A DNA stretch of 64,000 nt, from NCBI RefSeq assembly GCF_036321535.1, contig NC_087436.1, positions 62,002,001 through 62,066,000 on the forward strand, written 5' to 3'. The stretch is from Camelus dromedarius (taxonomy: Eukaryota). Position numbers and translations under genes: made by a program. Of this stretch, positions 2,943 through 56,123 are shown in pieces (position 1 is the stretch's first letter; the number at the start of each line of letters is the position of its first letter). The notes under the pieces were generated by a model that had not been told where the DNA came from, ran no database searches, and saw only the letters and a program-made list of their open reading frames with translations.

Positions 2943-3761
2943 AATTATTAAAAGTAGGATTATGGTAGTTGATCATTTGACTAAGAGGCTTAAAGATTTT
3001 TCTGAGACATCCATTGTAAGCTACCAGATTATGTCCCTTGAGTGGTATCCCTAGGCCACTACCAAGCCATTTTTTTATACAGCACCTTGCATCATGTGAC
3101 TCTCAAGATGTTGATCTTAATTTAATTATGTAAGGATGGCCCATGTTATTGATTCATTACTAGAAGTTAGATTAGAGTAATCAAAAATTTCTGAGTTATC
3201 CTAATTCTTAGTGGAATTTAAAAAATAATAATCATAATTTGTTTTCTCTGAGTGCTGTGATAGCACAATGTGAATAAGAAAATCATAAATGAGGATAATC
3301 TGTGGAGATGAATCTGATTTCATGCTGGGTCTAAAGAATATGGCTTAGAATAATTTGTTTTGTTTATTCACTGAATATTTTTATATGAATTGTCATTTGA
3401 AAACTTTGTTATTGCATAGATTTTGTAGATATGATCCTTTGTCATTACAAAGACTGAATAATGGAGCAAAGGAACAAATGCAAAATAAAGGTTTAATGGA
3501 TTTTCCTATCTCTGTATCTTTGATGGTAAGGGCAGTGAGCAACAGTATTAAGAGCACAAAGGTCCAGAAAAGATGGGAGAACCTCCTGCTAAAGGATTCC
3601 TGGAAAAGTTTCACAGCAAAATTAATTCTGTGGAAATACAAGGAATGATCACAAGAACAGTTACGATTTCAAGACTACCTATCCAAAGTTTTAAAATCTA
3701 TTTCAGTACAAAAGTGAAATACAGACTTTAGTGGAAGAAGCAATAATTTCCTGAATGTTAA

Positions 3762-3848
3762 CACTGCATTAACATCACTAGACAGATCTTCCAGACAGAA
3801 AATAAACAAGGCAACAGAGAAATTAAATACTACAATAGAAAAACTAGT
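3762..3848 (+). mobile_element. 87-bp internal L1 ORF2 endonuclease-domain fragment between 15-bp direct repeats
   Basis: Encodes NTALTSLDRSSRQKINKATEKLNTTIEKL (compare L1 ORF2 GDFNTPLSTLDRSTRQKVNK). The repeat tttcctgaatgttaa is at 3747-3761 and 3849-3863. Confidence 0.85.
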
Positions 3849-4769
3849 TTTCCTGAATGTTAAGGGAAAACACTTAATAATAATACAAAACAAGAAGTAA
3901 AGTTTGCTTACAAACGCAGCTATACTGTTCTCAAATTCAGTATTGAACTCAATCAAGACTGAAAAGCTAAAGTGTCATTTACAAGCTATTCTCTCATGGT
4001 TCCTTTTAACTCAGATCACATTCGGAGCTTATCCTCTGTGATAGAAGGTAACATTTGCTGAATATACTGAGTGGCATTTCTAAAATGCCCTTCTTGAAAT
4101 CCCAAATCATATTTATAAAGAAAGGGTCAATCAAAAAACATTTTCAGCCCATTTACCGATACATACTATATAATCTTCATTACTTTCCCTGATTCCTAAT
4201 ATACAAGTTTGTTCTAAACTATCATGAAAAGGAGAAGAAAATAATAATTTTTACATAGCAAGAACACAAGATTTCAAGCTGGTTTTTACATTGGTGAATA
4301 TGTATTGTTGGCTAGATTTGCTATATACATTCCCTGAAATGAATTCAAGACTGTTTACACGTATCAGATGAAAAAGCATATGTAAGAATAAAGATCCTAT
4401 ATTTATGTTACTGAAGAGCTTCATTTTCTCCATAGATATATTACATATAAGAAGTAAACCCAAAAATAAGGCTGAAAAAAATGATGTTTTCTAAGCATCT
4501 ACAAAATTTAATATAAATCTGTCATTTCGTTTCCAACATTAGATATTTGCATGTTGTCACCAAAACTATTTATACACAAGTGAAGACTTTCAAAGTGCAG
4601 GGAGATTTAGGGTAAAGAAATGGAAGAGCATGTTGAATACAATGATCTACAACTATATACTTTCCAAGTAGGCTCAACTTTTACTTGAAATGGCTTAAAT
4701 TTTGCTATAAAGTAAAAAAGAATTGCATAATCACTGTATGTTTAAACTATCCTAAGATGCAGATTTTGT

Positions 4770-5491: not shown

Positions 5492-5660
5492 TTTTTTAAT
5501 TAAAAAAAACTTTATGTTTTATTTATTATGGTATTATTTAATTATTTTATTTTGGTGGGGGGAGGTAACTAGGTTTATTTATTTGAGGTTCTGGGGATTG
5601 AACCCAGGACCTCATGCATGATAAGCAAGTGCTCTACCACTTGAACTATACCCACCCCCC
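5492..5660 (-). mobile_element. tRNA-derived SINE, camelid Vic-1-like
   Basis: Minus-strand head ggggggtgggtatagttcaagtggtagagcacttgc..ggtcctgggttcaatcccca has Pol III A and B boxes, followed by aaataaacctagttacctccccc and an A-rich tail. A 17-bp TSD tagacagaMatattctt lies at 5475-5491 and 5661-5677. Confidence 0.9.
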
Positions 5661-7754: not shown

Positions 7755-8307
7755 CTGCCTGTCTGTCTCTCTGTCTGTGTGGTATAGAAGATAGGTAGGT
7801 AGATAGATAAATAGATGTAATCATATTCTGGAAATGAATCATTTGTCATGTACTTATATTTTATATATTATCCCACTTACTGCTATTTTTAATGTAGTAA
7901 AAATAAACAGCTGCTAGTTATAATGTAGTCTGATTTCTTGATTTTTTTTCTTATTTACATTTTGTACATATTCTATCTTATTTTTAAAATATTTTATCCT
8001 CTAACTATAAAGATAGCATATATTATATTTAAAACTCTTATTGTTTATAGTATTTAAATTTAAATCAATGAGCAATCAGGAATTTTTTTTTTTAATGTAT
8101 GCTGAGTTAGGGCCACTAGTTTCCTTTATATTCCAAAAGGTTTTTTTGTATTGAATAGCCCAGGCCTTTTTCCATATCTGAAACCCACACTTTCATCACT
8201 GCAATCACTCTTATATAGTTTATACAGAGTTACAGATATGCCATGGCTGCATAAAGTCACTGCAGTGTCTTTTGCTTACAAATAAATCTTTGGATAAAAT
8301 ACAAAAA

Positions 8308-8856
8308 AGTTTCCTTGGAAAGAAAAAGAAGAGGCTCTGAGTTACCAAATCGTGGAGAAATAGAAAGGAATGGGCCACCTTTTTGCACTGCCTTGTAGCC
8401 ATGCACAGAACGTGGTCAGGGGCGTTACAATGGGCTCCCATTTCAAGATGAGATTGTGTGTACTCACTTCCCCATCAGCGTCATTATTCAGAAGAATGGA
8501 GCTCTTGTTGAAATGTGAAATTTCTTGGGTGAAAAATACATCTGCAAGGTTCAAATGAGGCCAAGCGTGGCTTGTTGAGTATCTCAAGTGCCAGAAAAAA
8601 TGAGTTAATTCCTGAAGGAAACAACATTGACCTTGTATCAAATTCAGCGGCTTTGATTTAGCAAGCCCCAACAGTTAAAAACACAGATAGCAGAAACATT
8701 TGGGATGGTATTTATGTTTCTGAAAATGGAACAGTTAGCATGCTGATGATTCAGACCTAAGTTGTCCAGCTACAAAAACAGTAAGATGCTGGATGATTCC
8801 TGTTTGTAATGTTTTAAAGGTACAATAAATGCCCTGTGTTGGGGGGAAAAGAAAAA
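8308..8856 (+). pseudogene. RPL9: 5'-truncated processed pseudogene of 60S ribosomal protein L9
   Basis: Translation from 8308 gives [98 protein letters not shown], collinear with RPL9 ([21 protein letters not shown]...[41 protein letters not shown]). It has no introns and several stops and frameshifts. An RPL9-like 3'UTR follows, with AATAAA at 8824-8829 and an A-rich tail at 8847-8856. Confidence 0.95.
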
Positions 8857-9450
8857 GCTGATAAGCCACTTACCCCTCTCTTTGAATGGACCAACTGCGT
8901 TTCCCATTTCTCTGACCTCACCTTGGAGGTCCAGGTCATTTTGTTCCAGACAGGGTAGAGTGGATTGCTGGCTGTCCTCTTCTTCTCCTACTGGCTTCTG
9001 TGGGCAGGATGGCATCCTTCTGGCCATGAGTTTATACATTCACCTGAGCAGTGTCCAAAGTGCTGAGGCAGGCTCCATCTTTGTCAGAGTTCTGACTGAG
9101 CTGGTGTTCAAAATGAAGCAGATGGATGCAATGGAGCTGGGAGGCCTGTGAGCCATCATGCTGTTTAACCCAGATGCCGAGGGTCTGTCCAACCCCCCAG
9201 AGGCTCTGGGAGAGAAAATTTATGCCATTCTTGAGGCTAACACCAAGCAGAAGTACCTGGAACAACCAGGCAGGTTTGCAAAACTGCTGCTGTGCCTCCC
9301 AGCCCTGCACTCCATCAGGCGTCATGCCTGGAGTACCTTTTCTTCAAGCTCTTCAGGGACACCCCCATTGACACCTTCCTCGTGGAGATGTAGATCCTGC
9401 TGCAGATCACCTGCACCCCACCAGTTTCAGCCTCCCTGACCTGAGGATTG
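8857..9450 (+). pseudogene. RXRG: Processed pseudogene fragment of retinoid X receptor gamma (ligand-binding domain plus start of 3'UTR)
   Basis: Reads [144 protein letters not shown]. The motifs FSDLTLE, QDGILLA, GSIF, KMK, TKQKY and terminal LQIT fit RXRG better than RXRA or RXRB. It is continuous across four positions where I recall RXR genes having introns (~8953, 9087, 9173, 9273). Stops lie at 8956, 9149 and 9391. Confidence 0.92.
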
Positions 9451-9459
9451 TTTCTGATC

Positions 9460-11740
9460 AAAGCAAACAAATATTATCAGATTGTAGAGGAAAGAAAAAC
9501 AGATTGGAGACATTGAGCACATAAGGGAAATGAAGATATTAAGGGAATGAAGAAAGGTATTCTGAGATGAATGAAAAGTAAGAGCATCTGTACTAGCAAA
9601 CCTACTCTATAAGAAATGTTAAAGAAATCTCTTCAGGTTGAAGGAAAATGATACCAGAGGGAATCTTGGCTCTTTAAGAATGAAGAGAGAGTAGAAATGA
9701 TAAATATTTAATTAAACATAATAGACTATTTTTATTTTTATTTAAAATATAAACACATGATGACAGCAAAAAGTATAACAATGTACAATGGGACTTTCAA
9801 TATACGTAGATGTAAAAGATTTAACAACCGTAAGATAAGGCTTAGTGGGGGTATAAAGAGACCTATATGGTTGCAAACATTCTGTATTTTATTGAAGTAG
9901 TGCAACCTTATTTTGAGATGACTGTGAATACTTGAATATGTGTATTTTAATTCCTATAGTGGTAAAAAAAATTATGTAAAGATATATAGCCAAAAATCCA
10001 ATATATACCTTAAATATAAAGATCAAATAAAATCCAAAAGAAGAGATAAAAGGTAAAACAGAGCAGCAAAAATCAGAGGGGATAAACAAAAAACAAGCAA
10101 TAAATGAGGCTGTATCAACCATATGAGACTATATCCAGCCATATCAATAATTAAATGTTAATTGCCTAAGCACCAAGAACCAGAGATTGATTAAAATGTA
10201 AAACTGCACTTACATGTAGCCTATAAGAAAAATATTTTAAATATAAAGTCATAGGTAGATTGAAAGTGAAGTAATAGAATGAGGTTTACTATACAAACAG
10301 TAAGCTTAGTAAAATTGGAGTGGCTATCTTAATATCATATAAAATGGACTTCAAGAAGTAAAGTAGGACATTTTATAATGAAAAAAGGACTAAGTCATCA
10401 GTAGGACATATTTCTAAATGTATATGCATCTCAAAATAATAAAATAGCCTCAAAATACACAAAATAAAAATGAATGAATTGTAAAAAGAAATAGACAATT
10501 CAACAAACATAGAAGAAGATATTAACATCCCTCTATCAACAACTGATAGAATAATAAGACACTAATAACAGCACTATTTACCACTGGAAATATTGTTTAT
10601 TACATTATTATAGTCAACATAATGTGTACTCAATACACATTCTTTTCCATGGGGAAAAAAATGTTTTTAAGGTTCACTATATGCTAGACTATAAAACAAA
10701 ACTCAATAAATTTAAAAAATAAAATGTATACAGATTTTATTCTCTGGCCAAAATAGGAGTAAATTAAAGCAGGATATGTAGATCTCTGCCACAAATATCT
10801 GGAAATCACCCCCCCCCAATCTGAAAAATGCAGCTGTGTAAATCCATGGGTCAAACAGAACCCTCCTGGATTATAGGTGAAATCAGAAAGGAAATTAGAA
10901 AATAGTTTTTTTTTTTTAACTGAATGACAGTTGAAATCCAGTCAATATTTACTTGAATCAGTTAAAGAAACACTTGGTGGGAAACTCAGAGCTTTAAATG
11001 TATATGTTAGGAAAGAAAAATTACCTAGAATAAATTATCTATGATTCCAAATTCAGGTATTAGAAAAAGTAAAACAAAGTAAACCCAAAGTAAGTGGAAG
11101 TAAAGAAATAATAAAAGAAGAGCATATATCAATGCAATGAAAACAGGCAACAGAAAGAATTAGAAAAGCTAAAAGATGTGTTTTGATAAGATCAGTGTAA
11201 TTGACAAGTTCCTAAATAGACTAAGAGAAAAAGAGGCAACACAAATCACCTATATTAAGAAGGCTATTGTTATAGATGCTGTAGAAATTGAAAGGCAATG
11301 ATTGAATACTATGAACAACTTTATGCCCACAAGTTTGACAACTTAGATGAATGGACATACTTCTTGAAAAATACAACTTAACAAAATTGACACTAACCTC
11401 CACACAGAATCTGAATAGTTCTATATCCATTGAAGAAATTGAATTTGCTGTCAGAATATCTCCAAAAAAATGTCAAGGTCCAGATGGTTTTGCTAGAGAA
11501 TTTTACTAAATATATGAAGAATAAATAACACACATTTACCACAAATCTTTTCAGAAAATAAAGGAGGAGAGATGATTGACCAGTTCTTTTTAGGATGCCA
11601 TTGTGACCTTGATATTAAAATCTGACAAAGAAATTGGAAAAAAGAAAGAAGGAAAAAAAGAGAAAATTACAGAAACGGACTACTGATATATGCAATAGCA
11701 AGGATCAATCTTCAAATCATTCATACCTAGTTTGATTCCA
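9460..11740 (+). mobile_element. Old L1 (L1MC/MD-like): ORF1 end, inter-ORF region and degraded ORF2 5' half
   Basis: aagaaatgttaaagaaatctcttcaggttgaaggaaaatgataccaga; ggagtggctatcttaatatca; gaatactatgaacaactttatgcccacaagtttgacaacttagatgaatggac; ggtccagatggttttgct. Confidence 0.85.
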
Positions 11741-26236: not shown

Positions 26237-26720
26237 TGAAGCGGGAGGAAAGTGGGCAGGGCACAACCACTCAAGGAATAATACAGCAATTGAGGACAAG
26301 ACAAACTAGTCAGAACCAAGGTGGTGGAAGATTTGACTTCCAGTAGACCTTGAGCCTCATGGCACACCCACAGGTGCCATGACAGTTCCTAGGATGACCA
26401 TAAAATGTCAAAAGTGGGCGGAGGGCATTTCCTTGAAATCCTTTCCCCTTCCCCAAAGTAACTGGAATAATTGTCCTACTCATTAGCGTATGAAATTACC
26501 AAGCCCATAAAGCCTAACAACTCGGCACCTCGTGATCGCGCTGTCTTGCCTTCTGATGTGGCCCACGTTCTGCTTACAGAGTGTGTATCTCCTTCTGAGT
26601 GAGACAGACTGACCTCTGTCTGTGGAGTGTGTATCTTTCTAAATAAACTTGCTTTCACTTTAGCATGCCTTGTTCTTGAATTCTTTCCTGCCTGAGGCCA
26701 CAACCTATTCTCCCCCAGCA
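26237..26720 (+). mobile_element. ERV1-like solo LTR
   Basis: TG...CA termini, AATAAA at 26642, then ttgaattctttcctgc; imperfect 4-bp TSD gtac/atac; related to the LTR at 29514. Confidence 0.85.
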
Positions 26721-28620: not shown

Positions 28621-29513
28621 AAATTCTAAGAATCTCATTTCTGAGGGTCTTTAGCTTTTGGATTTCTACTGATTTCTTAGAGGTGATTTCAGCGTCTTCT
28701 GCTTTGGGGAAGGAAGGTGGGTTTTGCCAAACAACCTCTAAAGCCTCTTTTCCAGTGCTCTGAGGCTTGAAGTGTTCTTGACTTCACATGAGAGTATCAG
28801 TGCTTTAAAGTTGCCTCAGGTAATTGTATAATACAGTGATGATATGGGAAGTAATATAACTAAAACCCCAAATAGAAAAGATTTAGGAGCGTCTAATAGG
28901 ATATAGGCTACTTTCCTGAGAGACAGAGTTCTAGCCGCATGGCAACAGTATCCCATTAACTATTTTAAGCTGCTTCAGTTAACTGTTCTCTCCTTTGTCT
29001 GAACTGACTATAGAAATGATGGAAATGAATATCATTGGGAAACTTCTTCAAAGTCACAAAAAACTTCCCAAGGCTTCTAATATATATGAAACACTTACAT
29101 AGGGAAAGACGTTTCTGTAATGAGTCAAGTAATGAATACAGTCGTTTACTAGATACATTTACCTTTATGACCAAATACTGTCTTTTCTCTGAAACCTAAA
29201 ACACAAGTGTTAGAACAGATTAACCCCACCTACTTGAATTGGCATTTTGAACATCGTTTCTTTGAGATCTAGTGATAGTTTCTTATGAAGGAGTCACCAC
29301 CAACACACTTTAAACTTTTCAGTGTGACTTTTTAAATATAAATATGTATTTCCATCTGTCACAAAGTAAAAACTAGATCTGCAATTTGAACTAGGACAAC
29401 TTAATGTAAATCATTATTAACTAGTAAAAAAGGGTAACTACTAAAAGGACTCTAGGAATACTGAGAAAGCCAATGCAGGGGGCACTATCTTTGGGGCTGA
29501 GTGAGTGAGTGAG

Positions 29514-30137
29514 TGAGACAGGAAGGGGGCAGGGCACAGCCATTCAAGGAATGCCACAGCAATTAACATCAAAATAGTGAAAGATTCAACCCCTAGTAGG
29601 CCTTGAGGCTCAAGATGATGGGAGATTTAACTTCTAACAGACCTTGAGCTTCATTATACGCCCATTGTAATATGTTAGCATGGTGAATAACATGCCCCCA
29701 GGCACCATGGCAGTCCCAAGGCTAGCCACACAAGGTCAAAGAGTATGAAATGGCCAACTTCCTGGGAATCCCAGCCCCTTCCCCAGGATACTTAGACTGG
29801 TCCTTCCACTTACTAGCTTATAAAGCCACTAAGCCCATAAAAACTGGCAACATGGTGCCTCACGCCCGCCTCTCTCTCCATTCAGAGATGGCCTGCACTC
29901 TGTCTATGGAGTGTGTACCTACTTTTAATCTGAGCACCCACCCCCACACCTTGTGGCCTTTCTCTTGCCTTTCAATGTATCTCTCTGAATAAATCTGCTT
30001 TTACTCAACTGTGGCTCGCTCTTGAATTCTTTCCTGCGCGAAGCCAAGGACCCACGCATGGCCCGGCACGTTCCAGGGGCTCAACCGAAGCCTGGGACAC
30101 GGCCCTCCTCACGCCCCACATCTGTTTTCCTGCATCA
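29514..30137 (+). mobile_element. ERV1-like solo LTR (young, CpGs retained)
   Basis: TG...CA termini, perfect 4-bp TSD tgag (29510-29513 and 30138-30141), AATAAA at 29988. Confidence 0.92.
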
Positions 30138-30491
30138 TGAGCAAGGAAGAGACTAAAACCTTAGGGAAACATCCTCTGACCCCACCTCCATCAAACAAGA
30201 GATTCTGAACTTGCAGGAGAACGTGTGGCTGCCGCAGAAACACTGTCTATCAGAGGCAGAGAAACCTGGCAGAAGGAATAGGGGAGGACCGAAGGGGTCA
30301 AGGATCAGGAGAGTGTGGGTAGGCTAAAGATGCCATAGCCTCACAAGGACCCTCCTCCATCCTCTATGAAAAGGCCTAACAGTGCTGTTGTTAGCAGAAG
30401 AGAAATGTTGACAGAATTCAGCCTCAGAATCATCATCGCAAAAAGCATCTCAAAAAAGCATGCACTTAGAACTGAGAAGAACTATATTGAC

Positions 30492-30970
30492 TGTGAACGA
30501 AAAACACTGCAAACCATATCAGTAAACAGAAAATGCTGAAACCATCAAGTCATCAGCCGCTGCCGCCACCCCCCAGTGAAGACAAGCCTGCAGCCCAGCC
30601 TCTGCAGCCACTCACAATGGCGCACTCTGAGCAGACTCAGAATAAGAAAGGACAGGATACTGGCCCTAGACAGCTAGGTGCTTGTCAAAGGAGTGGATTC
30701 AATGAGCCCAAATGTTTGCTTCCTCCCATACATAGAAAAGCACTAACTTCTTTAACTTGAGATGCCTGGTTTTTTTTAGGTAACAAGTAATCTTTTATTG
30801 TTCCAACTACCTGGTCTTTGTTGTAAAGCTCTTAGGTATCCTAGCTTCTCCCCTACCTCTTCGGAGCAGTCCCTCAGAGCGATCTGAGAGGCTGTCATCC
30901 CAGCTCAAGTCCTCCTGCCAAATAAAACATAACTCTCAACTTTTAGGCTGTGCATTTATTTCAGTCGACA
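30492..30970 (+). mobile_element. ERV1-like solo LTR (second family)
   Basis: tgtgaac...gtcgaca termini, perfect 4-bp TSD tgac (30488-30491 and 30971-30974), AATAAA at 30921. Confidence 0.9.
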
Positions 30971-52592: not shown

Positions 52593-53690
52593 TGTACCAT
52601 TATATCAATTAGGGTAACAATAAAAAACAAGTGGTATATGCAAAGGATTAGTTGCAGAGAGTGTAATAAAGAAGCTATTTGCAAGGATGTGGACAAAGCT
52701 AAAGAATCCAACAAGAGATGGTAAAGCATGCAGGCACTAGCACCATGGAATGTCAGTACCCTTGAAGGGTAAGGAAAAATGGTGGTGCTGTTAAACCTAG
52801 CAAGAGCGCTAACTGTCAGAGCAGGCAGATAGCTAGATATGAGCAGAGAAAGGGGGACACAGACCCAATGGCAGAAATTGGGCAGAAAGGAGGGGCACAG
52901 GCCAAATGCAGGAAACCACACATCATGTAAGCAGCAGGGATCCTTGGGCAGAAAAAGAAAAGCAGGAACCTTGGGGCTGATAAGGGATCATGCCTTTTGG
53001 GATGACAAGTGGTCTGGAGAAGAACAAAGAAAGGTGAGAAAAGGCAGGAATTTCTAGTGTCCGAATGTAACCTTTTGCTCATTATGCCCTCATTTCAAAA
53101 AATTAGCCTTGCAGATCAGAAGTTCCCATCATGCACTGACGGACGCCATGACACTTCCGATCCAGACTAAATAAGGACAAAAATCCCTCCTCCTGTTGGG
53201 AAGGTGGAGTTGGGATGATAATCAGGGAATAGGACCCCAAACCCTTCCCTCCCCAATGAATATTCTGCCCATCCATTTTTACACCCTATGTAGCCAACTT
53301 GCCAAGGAAACTCAAGGCAGCTGCTCACCTGAGCCTTCCCGCTCTCCCCTGAGAGTGTACTATCCATCCTTTAATAAATCCTCACTTTACCTTTTTTAAC
53401 CTCTAAGTCTTGTCTCTGAATTCTTTCTGGGATGAGACAAGAACCTGGAACACCGGTTGCATCTATCGGCAACATAACTATGAGATGGGCTCCAAGAAGG
53501 AACGATTGTTTTAGGTAGAGGATTTCAGCCACTGTCAAAGTGCAGGCTGCCAAGGAATGATGGGGGTGGGGGCAATAGACACACTGACCCTCCTCTATTT
53601 CCTCCTGCTTATTCCCATTGGTGTCAAAGGCTGACAGAATCAAGCCAGGAGCAGGAGGGAGTGGAGAATGGACCTAGAGAGAGACAACCA
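52593..53690 (-). mobile_element. Old ERVL-type LTR (LTR33/LTR16-like) split by a younger LTR
   Basis: Remnants on both sides of 52814-53474: aattagggtaacaataaaaaacaag..ctatttgcaaggatgtgg; ttcccattgg..gaatggacctagag. Confidence 0.45.
52814..53474 (+). mobile_element. ERV1-like solo LTR
   Basis: tgtcag...gcaaca termini, perfect 4-bp TSD taac (52810-52813 and 53475-53478), AATAAA at 53373. Confidence 0.92.
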
Positions 53691-55685: not shown

Positions 55686-56123
55686 TGTATGGATTCAGTC
55701 AGCCCTTGGCCCATATCCTTAAGGCACCTTTACATTTCCATTTGCAGCTGGACTTTGCTTTGTGGAAGAGCTGCCCGCAGGCTGCTGGGCCCTCTTCGCC
55801 CACAAGCCCAGTGGATTGGGAATGCCTGAGAGATAACAGGCCCCAACTGAAGCCCACCCCATAACCAACTGTAAAAAATTAATAAACAGAAATCTCAATA
55901 ATATAGAATTGAGAGACCAGAAGGGGGAGTTCTCATGCTCTGAGACAAAAGCAGAGCCCACCAGGACGAGACTCCTCTTCTTTCTCGGCAAAGACTCAGT
56001 AAAAGCCTTGGACTCTTCGTTTCCTCTGGTTGCAGACTCAAATTTGCAGTTCTCTAGTGAGCCCCAGTAAACCCATCTTTGCTGGATAAATGTCCAGCGG
56101 TCCCTTTGTTTCAGGTCAATACA
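55686..56123 (+). mobile_element. ERV1-like LTR (MER34-like)
   Basis: tgt start; cccataaccaactgtaaaaa; agtaaacccatctttgctgg; tttgtttcaggtcaa end; no clear TSD. Confidence 0.6.

Follow-up and report, generated by a model that had tools for sequence, protein, structure and literature searches.

Results

The RPL9–RXRG double retrocopy

The window analysed here, a stretch of 64,000 nucleotides of the Camelus dromedarius genome (contig NC_087436.1), contains a double retrocopy in which remnants of RPL9 and RXRG stand next to each other with no spacer, both of them dead. The RPL9 copy (8308-8846, forward strand) is 5′-truncated and holds residues 46-192 and a 3′ UTR, in which an AATAAA signal (8824-8829) and a run of G (8841-8846) can be read. 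A 10-nt A-rich run, with A at nine of the ten positions, begins 17 nt after the signal, and the next base, 8857, opens codon 273 of RXRG (the codons for A-D-K) on the same strand. The junction is 8856|8857, with zero bases between the two halves. In a frameshift-aware alignment against back-translated proteins, 8308-8750 corresponds to residues 46-192 of RPL9 and 8857-9411 to residues 273-463 of RXRG (Table 1). A preliminary description of this DNA had read an RPL9 copy ending past AATAAA and RXRG sequence from 8857 on the same strand, and both the sequence and the alignment bear it out.

Table 1. Features at and around the RPL9–RXRG junction, in window coordinates
Feature	Position	Strand	Basis
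A-rich 12-mer preceded by T, resembling an L1 endonuclease nick site (T|AAAA) and a candidate for the 5′ target-site duplication of the RPL9-carrying insertion	8296-8307	+	Sequence
RPL9 coding remnant, residues 46-192, 5′-truncated, with frameshifts and stops; decayed stop codon at 8751-8753	8308-8753	+	Alignment
Presumed RPL9 3′ UTR, with the AATAAA signal and the G run at its end	8754-8846	+	Inferred from position after the stop
Remnant of the RPL9 poly(A) tail; in rival readings partly target-site duplication	8847-8856	+	Sequence
RXRG ligand-binding-domain coding remnant, residues 273-463, 5′-truncated, continuous; decayed stop codon at 9412-9414	8857-9414	+	Alignment
C-rich stretch of about 45 nt without poly(A) signal, presumably where the RXRG 3′ UTR begins	9415-9459	+	Sequence, hexamer scan
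A-rich stretch in which 9482-9499 matches 8839-8856 at 14/18; a candidate target-site duplication of RXRG only, or possibly L1 ORF1 sequence	9460-9499	+	Repeat scan
Sense L1 flank with putative ends, old and heavily decayed; contains the ORF2 endonuclease (10140-10565)	9540-11680	+	Protein match

All six protein matches of the RPL9 half carried PF00347, and five of them were named L9/uL6. For the RXRG half, the top two PDB matches were RXR-gamma, at 73 bits versus 68 for RXR-alpha and 65 for RXR-beta, and nearly all the named proteins among the 120 matches listed were RXR-gamma. The retrocopies retain about 72% protein identity. RPL9 begins at residue 46 of 192 and RXRG at residue 273 of 463, and the 147 and 191 aligned codons, respectively, contain no insertion longer than 2 nt and hence no intron-like gap; if the intron positions that we assume for the parents are right, the RXRG remnant crosses several exon joins. 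Stops and frameshifts have removed the coding capacity of both halves alike, and the locus has no likely function. Only six stop-to-stop frames of at least 110 aa occur in the whole window (1-64000), two of them overlapping the retrocopies and none gene-like, so the locus seems to be intergenic or deep intronic. Six RNA-labelled sequencing runs contained 0.07-0.46 of the sampled words, a measure of word content only and not of transcription. Metagenome contigs were considered as RXRG parent DNA and rejected: among the 80 kept of 139 confirmed loci, no match to the RXRG half went beyond 83% across 53 nt or 70% across 339 nt.

The flanks hold no more of either gene. Twelve tests for further RXRG or RPL9 coding sequence on both strands gave scores each reached by 13-60 of 60 shuffles, tblastn detected no other RXRG or RPL9 piece in the window below E 1.4, and RPL9 residues 1-46 were not found on either side. 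Left of 8308, the best scores for upstream RXRG sequence were matched by 28-46 of 60 shuffles. An RPL9 copy nested inside a longer RXRG copy, one form of nesting covered by the preliminary description, is therefore unsupported and was ruled against. A 5′-inverted piece in the flanks was likewise rejected, with no signal relative to shuffles, and 8229-8256, which by eye looks like the RXRG codons that precede residue 273, failed the shuffle test. The left flank looks like an old antisense L1; it scored 203 against the in-window L1 pieces, where the null mean was 209, nhmmer returned nothing, and this candidate was dropped. Two inverted-repeat pairs of 12 and 13 nt, 44-45 nt apart, lie to the left of RPL9 at 8173-8267 and may be due to chance among 82 such pairs.

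Elsewhere in the window, a short minus-strand SINE with what we take to be a camelid-specific look lies at 5500-5660, a hint at a camelid lineage. A decayed minus-strand frame at 1652-1870, which resembles L1 ORF1, has a single 75-aa relative (E 5.7e-4, 50% identity) and no Pfam match. The translation of a short, well-preserved piece at 3760-3850, isolated from other L1 coding sequence, resembles the L1 endonuclease. Five GC-richer stretches with approximate ends (26240-26720, 29510-30130, 30430-30970, 52990-53470 and 55870-56120) resemble solitary retroviral LTRs; two of the five are only about 300 bases apart.

The 3′ end of RXRG and the L1 flank

The RPL9 half has the tail expected of a processed pseudogene, a poly(A) signal followed by the A-rich run at 8847-8856, and the RXRG half does not. 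A scan of 9405-9500 for 11 hexamers found no canonical poly(A) signal, only AACAAA at 9466 and AAGAAA at 9492, and the A content downstream is confined to mixed A-rich patches at 9460-9472 and 9490-9499. The statement in the preliminary description that RXRG has no poly(A) thus holds for a clean tail; these patches make it uncertain for a decayed one.

RXRG had also been described as running into a sense L1 at about 9460. A sense L1 does follow, its ORF2 endonuclease matching human ORF2p (E 9e-12), but its start is not fixed, as no search assigned 9460-9540 to any element. Pfam returned no L1 family in any of three frames across 9440-11700, and for L1 ORF1 at 9460-9660 there was neither a Pfam match nor a relevant PDB match; the ORF1 reference search gave only one 75-aa protein, which does not include the needed region. 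This right-hand L1 looks older than the retrocopies; it was probably in place before them and lies outside the event that produced them.

Age of the two halves

Decay was compared at the sites that are fixed by the parent amino acid, using the parent proteins as reference. The RXRG reference is near-invariant, with all 14 listed mammalian proteins differing at 0-2 of 192 residues. The RPL9 reference was the majority of 11 proteins, in which eight of 192 columns show less than 70% agreement and one protein is 191/192 identical. The fraction of codon-fixed sites that differ was 34/256 (13.3%) in RPL9 and 49/308 (15.9%) in RXRG (Fisher p=0.41), or 22/180 and 29/212, respectively, when possible CpG sites were excluded (p=0.76). 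Indels were also comparable, five in 443 nt for RPL9 and six in 555 nt for RXRG. The corrected age ratio is 1.22, with an interval of 0.78-1.94, which would allow equal ages and also a near-twofold gap. This comparison had been proposed in the preliminary description as a check on a single origin; its outcome, similar decay, is compatible with one event, but the width of the interval makes it a weak check. Assuming a rate near 2e-9 per site per year, the insertion would be roughly 60-90 million years old, an age at which orthologues are likely in other even-toed ungulates.

One insertion or two

The preliminary description had set a single chimera against the insertion of one copy at or into the other, and we judge these to be the right alternatives. 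One event is somewhat more likely than two. We give a probability of about 0.55 to a single L1-driven insertion in which the reverse transcriptase jumped from the RXRG mRNA onto the poly(A) tail of the RPL9 mRNA; this figure, like the weights expressed in words below, is a judgement and was not computed. Starting from the observed layout and the similar decay, we infer the following course. L1 ORF2p would have cut at T|AAAA near 8296 and started reverse transcription there on the RXRG mRNA, halting at RXRG codon 273 with the template broken or paused. The enzyme would then have switched to an abundant second template, the RPL9 mRNA, entering at its 3′ end and copying about 550 nt, and the product, truncated at RPL9 codon 46, would have been joined to the target. 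A later deletion may have stripped the RXRG tail together with the 3′ target-site duplication, setting RXRG against the older L1.

The single insertion is supported by the zero spacer, the shared strand and the retention by the 5′ partner of its own 3′ end. It is also supported by the similar decay and by the finding that no target-site duplication around RPL9 alone exceeds chance. The cell-culture and in vitro precedents taken up in the Discussion point the same way. Three duplication layouts were scored against control zones of the same size, and the RPL9-only layout was at background, 394 of 2,459 zones reaching its score. Read-through transcription is an unlikely source of a joint RNA, since the two parent genes are, we assume, unlinked in human. 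Several points speak against the single insertion: the RXRG tail would have to be lost in a later deletion; the 5′ partner is truncated here but full-length in published genomic chimeras (PMC2104539); the age comparison is weak; an independent insertion at the same site is not a negligible possibility; and no outer target-site duplication rises above background. For the whole unit, the score of the best outer repeat was reached by 321 of 967 control zones, or by 136 of 967 when longer copies were allowed. With each copy decayed by about 14%, however, a short A-rich outer repeat would be hard to see, and the 3′ end is apparently gone. No 3′ partner of the A-rich 12-mer at 8296-8307 exceeded chance.

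How often could two independent copies abut? The preliminary description had considered it unlikely by chance. This goes too far, because the edges of an earlier insertion offer A-rich cut sites to L1 on the strand of that insertion. If 10,000 retrocopies are assumed in a 2 Gb genome with the site density of the window, the expectation per genome is about 1-5 same-site pairs for two looser motifs and 7-21 for the strict hexamer. Independent origin is thus rare, but not negligible.

Such an origin could have taken the form of an RPL9 copy that came first and whose A-rich 3′ end later received an RXRG copy; 9482-9499 would then be a duplicate of 8839-8856 or of the last 9-11 bases of that segment. 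We consider this history unlikely, yet it is the main competitor and deserves serious weight. It draws on the expected number of same-site pairs and, above all, on a repeat that stops exactly at the RXRG 5′ edge: its 14/18 identity was reached by 6 of 968 control zones, its exact 9-mer by 5 of 968 and its anchored gapped score by 10 of 967, with 0/32 and 0/27 in two A-rich stretches. Being the sole repeat above background, it favours separate events and is the main result against a single insertion. Its significance is nevertheless reduced by its post hoc nature, as the repeat was noticed first, its zone was drawn afterwards and three layouts were tried; when the zone was widened, the score was equalled in 10 of 436 controls. 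The 18-mer does not open with the A-run of an L1 nick, the 22 nt ahead of its second copy contain only 12 A (no clean tail), and past 9499 there is no remainder or duplication of the RPL9 tail. The RPL9 half, moreover, is no more decayed than the RXRG half, and the second repeat copy may be nothing more than A-rich codons of L1 ORF1. At 9469-9510, overlapping the candidate duplication, there is a two-copy repeat with a period of 22 nt and 75% identity, a further ground for doubting it.

The reverse order would start with an RXRG insertion at T|AAAA near 8296, the same nick being used later by RPL9, with 8847-8856 as a decayed copy of 8296-8307 instead of a tail. This we regard as improbable. 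RPL9 is slightly less decayed, at the percentages given above, but the age difference is not significant. The nick motif does lie 12 nt upstream of RPL9, and such a site is found 7-20 nt upstream of 6.1% of window positions by chance. The two 10-mers match at 8/10, but a match of this quality is common (155 of 2,460 zones, and 15 of 82 in A-rich L1), and a tail plus a duplication should have left more than ten A-rich bases.

It is very doubtful that the join is secondary or false, that is, that a deletion brought two nearby copies together or that the assembly was mis-joined. The RXRG 3′ end already requires a deletion; on the other hand, a deletion would have had to stop precisely at the tail, the window contains no N and both sides of the junction are single-copy within it. 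Fourteen of the 24 listed sequencing runs contain 0.99 of 187 31-mers sampled from 8000-9800; ten of these runs are flagged as a possible source, and four, from two samples and two studies, are not. Because about three sampled words are expected to cross the junction, this run content supports the join without proving it.

Equally remote is an insertion in three parts, started on L1 RNA, switched internally to RXRG mRNA and then to RPL9, which would explain the absent tail without a deletion: L1, RXRG and RPL9 do share a strand, RXRG meets L1-like sequence with no tail and three-part chimeras are described in PMC2104539, but the L1 endonuclease is by eye far more decayed, in what is an indirect comparison, and no Pfam L1 family is recognized in the flank while the retrocopies keep their protein identity.

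Discussion

The RPL9–RXRG locus can be compared with several known products of L1 activity. LINE template switching produces bipartite chimeric retrogenes (Buzdin/Gogvadze), which according to PMC2104539 have a 5′ part copied in full length from a cellular RNA and a 5′-truncated 3′ part, joined directly in the same orientation and flanked by one pair of direct repeats. The locus resembles them in the direct, same-orientation join and in the truncation of its 3′ part, RXRG, at an arbitrary point. It differs in that its 5′ part, RPL9, is itself truncated, that both parts are protein-coding mRNAs, with neither a small RNA nor a LINE, and that its outer direct repeat is at background only, the 3′ end seemingly lost. 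Since the full-length 5′ part fails and the flanking repeat stays at background, we class it as a variant of the bipartite chimeric retrogene and not as a member of that class.

A second comparison is with de novo L1 insertions of two transcripts in cultured cells, which likewise combine two reverse-transcribed RNAs in one insertion and which, when in the same orientation, are ascribed to template switching in PMC11702581. Nine such insertions are reported there from L1-overexpressing clones, beside 99 L1 and 235 pseudogene insertions; one is labelled in the supplement as full-length UBP1 plus truncated L1, by template switching, and closer mRNA-mRNA cases may appear in Fig. 3B of the same paper. 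Several of the clone cases involve overexpressed L1 or Neo RNA, so the clone rate overstates the germline rate; a tenth of it would still mean tens per genome. The cultured-cell insertions are somatic, arise under overexpressed L1 and have tail and duplication intact, whereas RPL9–RXRG is a very old germline insertion whose 3′ end is gone. In vitro, purified ORF2p jumps efficiently between poly(A) templates (PMC7617806).

The preliminary description had likened the locus to U6/L1 chimeras. The layout fits this analogy, but the chemistry likely differs. Poly(A) ends normally carry no cyclic phosphate, which makes RtcB-type ligation unlikely here and would favour a template jump. In U6/L1 and U6/pseudogene chimeras (PMC4476161), the 5′ partner similarly keeps its own 3′ end and lies in sense to a 5′-truncated 3′ partner. 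U6, however, is ligated by RtcB through its 2′,3′-cyclic phosphate (PMC6789731), while the 5′ partner at the present locus is the copy of a polyadenylated mRNA and ends in an A-run.

With ordinary L1 processed pseudogenes, including stacked or nested ones, the locus shares continuous coding sequence, 5′ truncation, neutral decay and, in the RPL9 half, a signal with an A-run. It is unlike them in that two different parents abut without spacer and in that the RXRG half is tailless. Comparative genomics defines a LINE-1 chimera by the joint presence or absence of its two parts across species (10.1101/2025.02.02.635956). The literature covered, mostly open-access and largely titles and abstract openings, neither mentions an RPL9-RXRG copy nor catalogues germline retrocopies made from two mRNAs.

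That L1 can insert two RNAs together is known; an uncommon form of this joins two mRNAs, has a truncated 5′ partner and is fixed in the germline. With slightly better than even confidence, we read the locus as a fossil, fixed in the germline and some tens of millions of years in age, of an L1 jump from inside one coding mRNA to the poly(A) tail of another within a single insertion. Jumps of this kind between coding mRNAs have so far been seen mainly in L1-overexpressing cells.

The locus itself shows no sign of function and is a curiosity for specialists in retrotransposition. If there were two insertions, it would represent ordinary re-use by L1 of an A-rich site, of use, if at all, only as a marker in the phylogeny of early even-toed ungulates. 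If there was one, L1 template jumping from mRNA to mRNA has reached the germline and become fixed, and a one-step route exists that could fuse coding sequence of unlinked genes. The arrangement found here, a poly(A) signal, an A-run and the coding sequence of another gene with zero spacer, provides a search image for counting such cases across aligned mammalian genomes, in which fused retrocopies may be an uncounted class, each scored as two pseudogenes.
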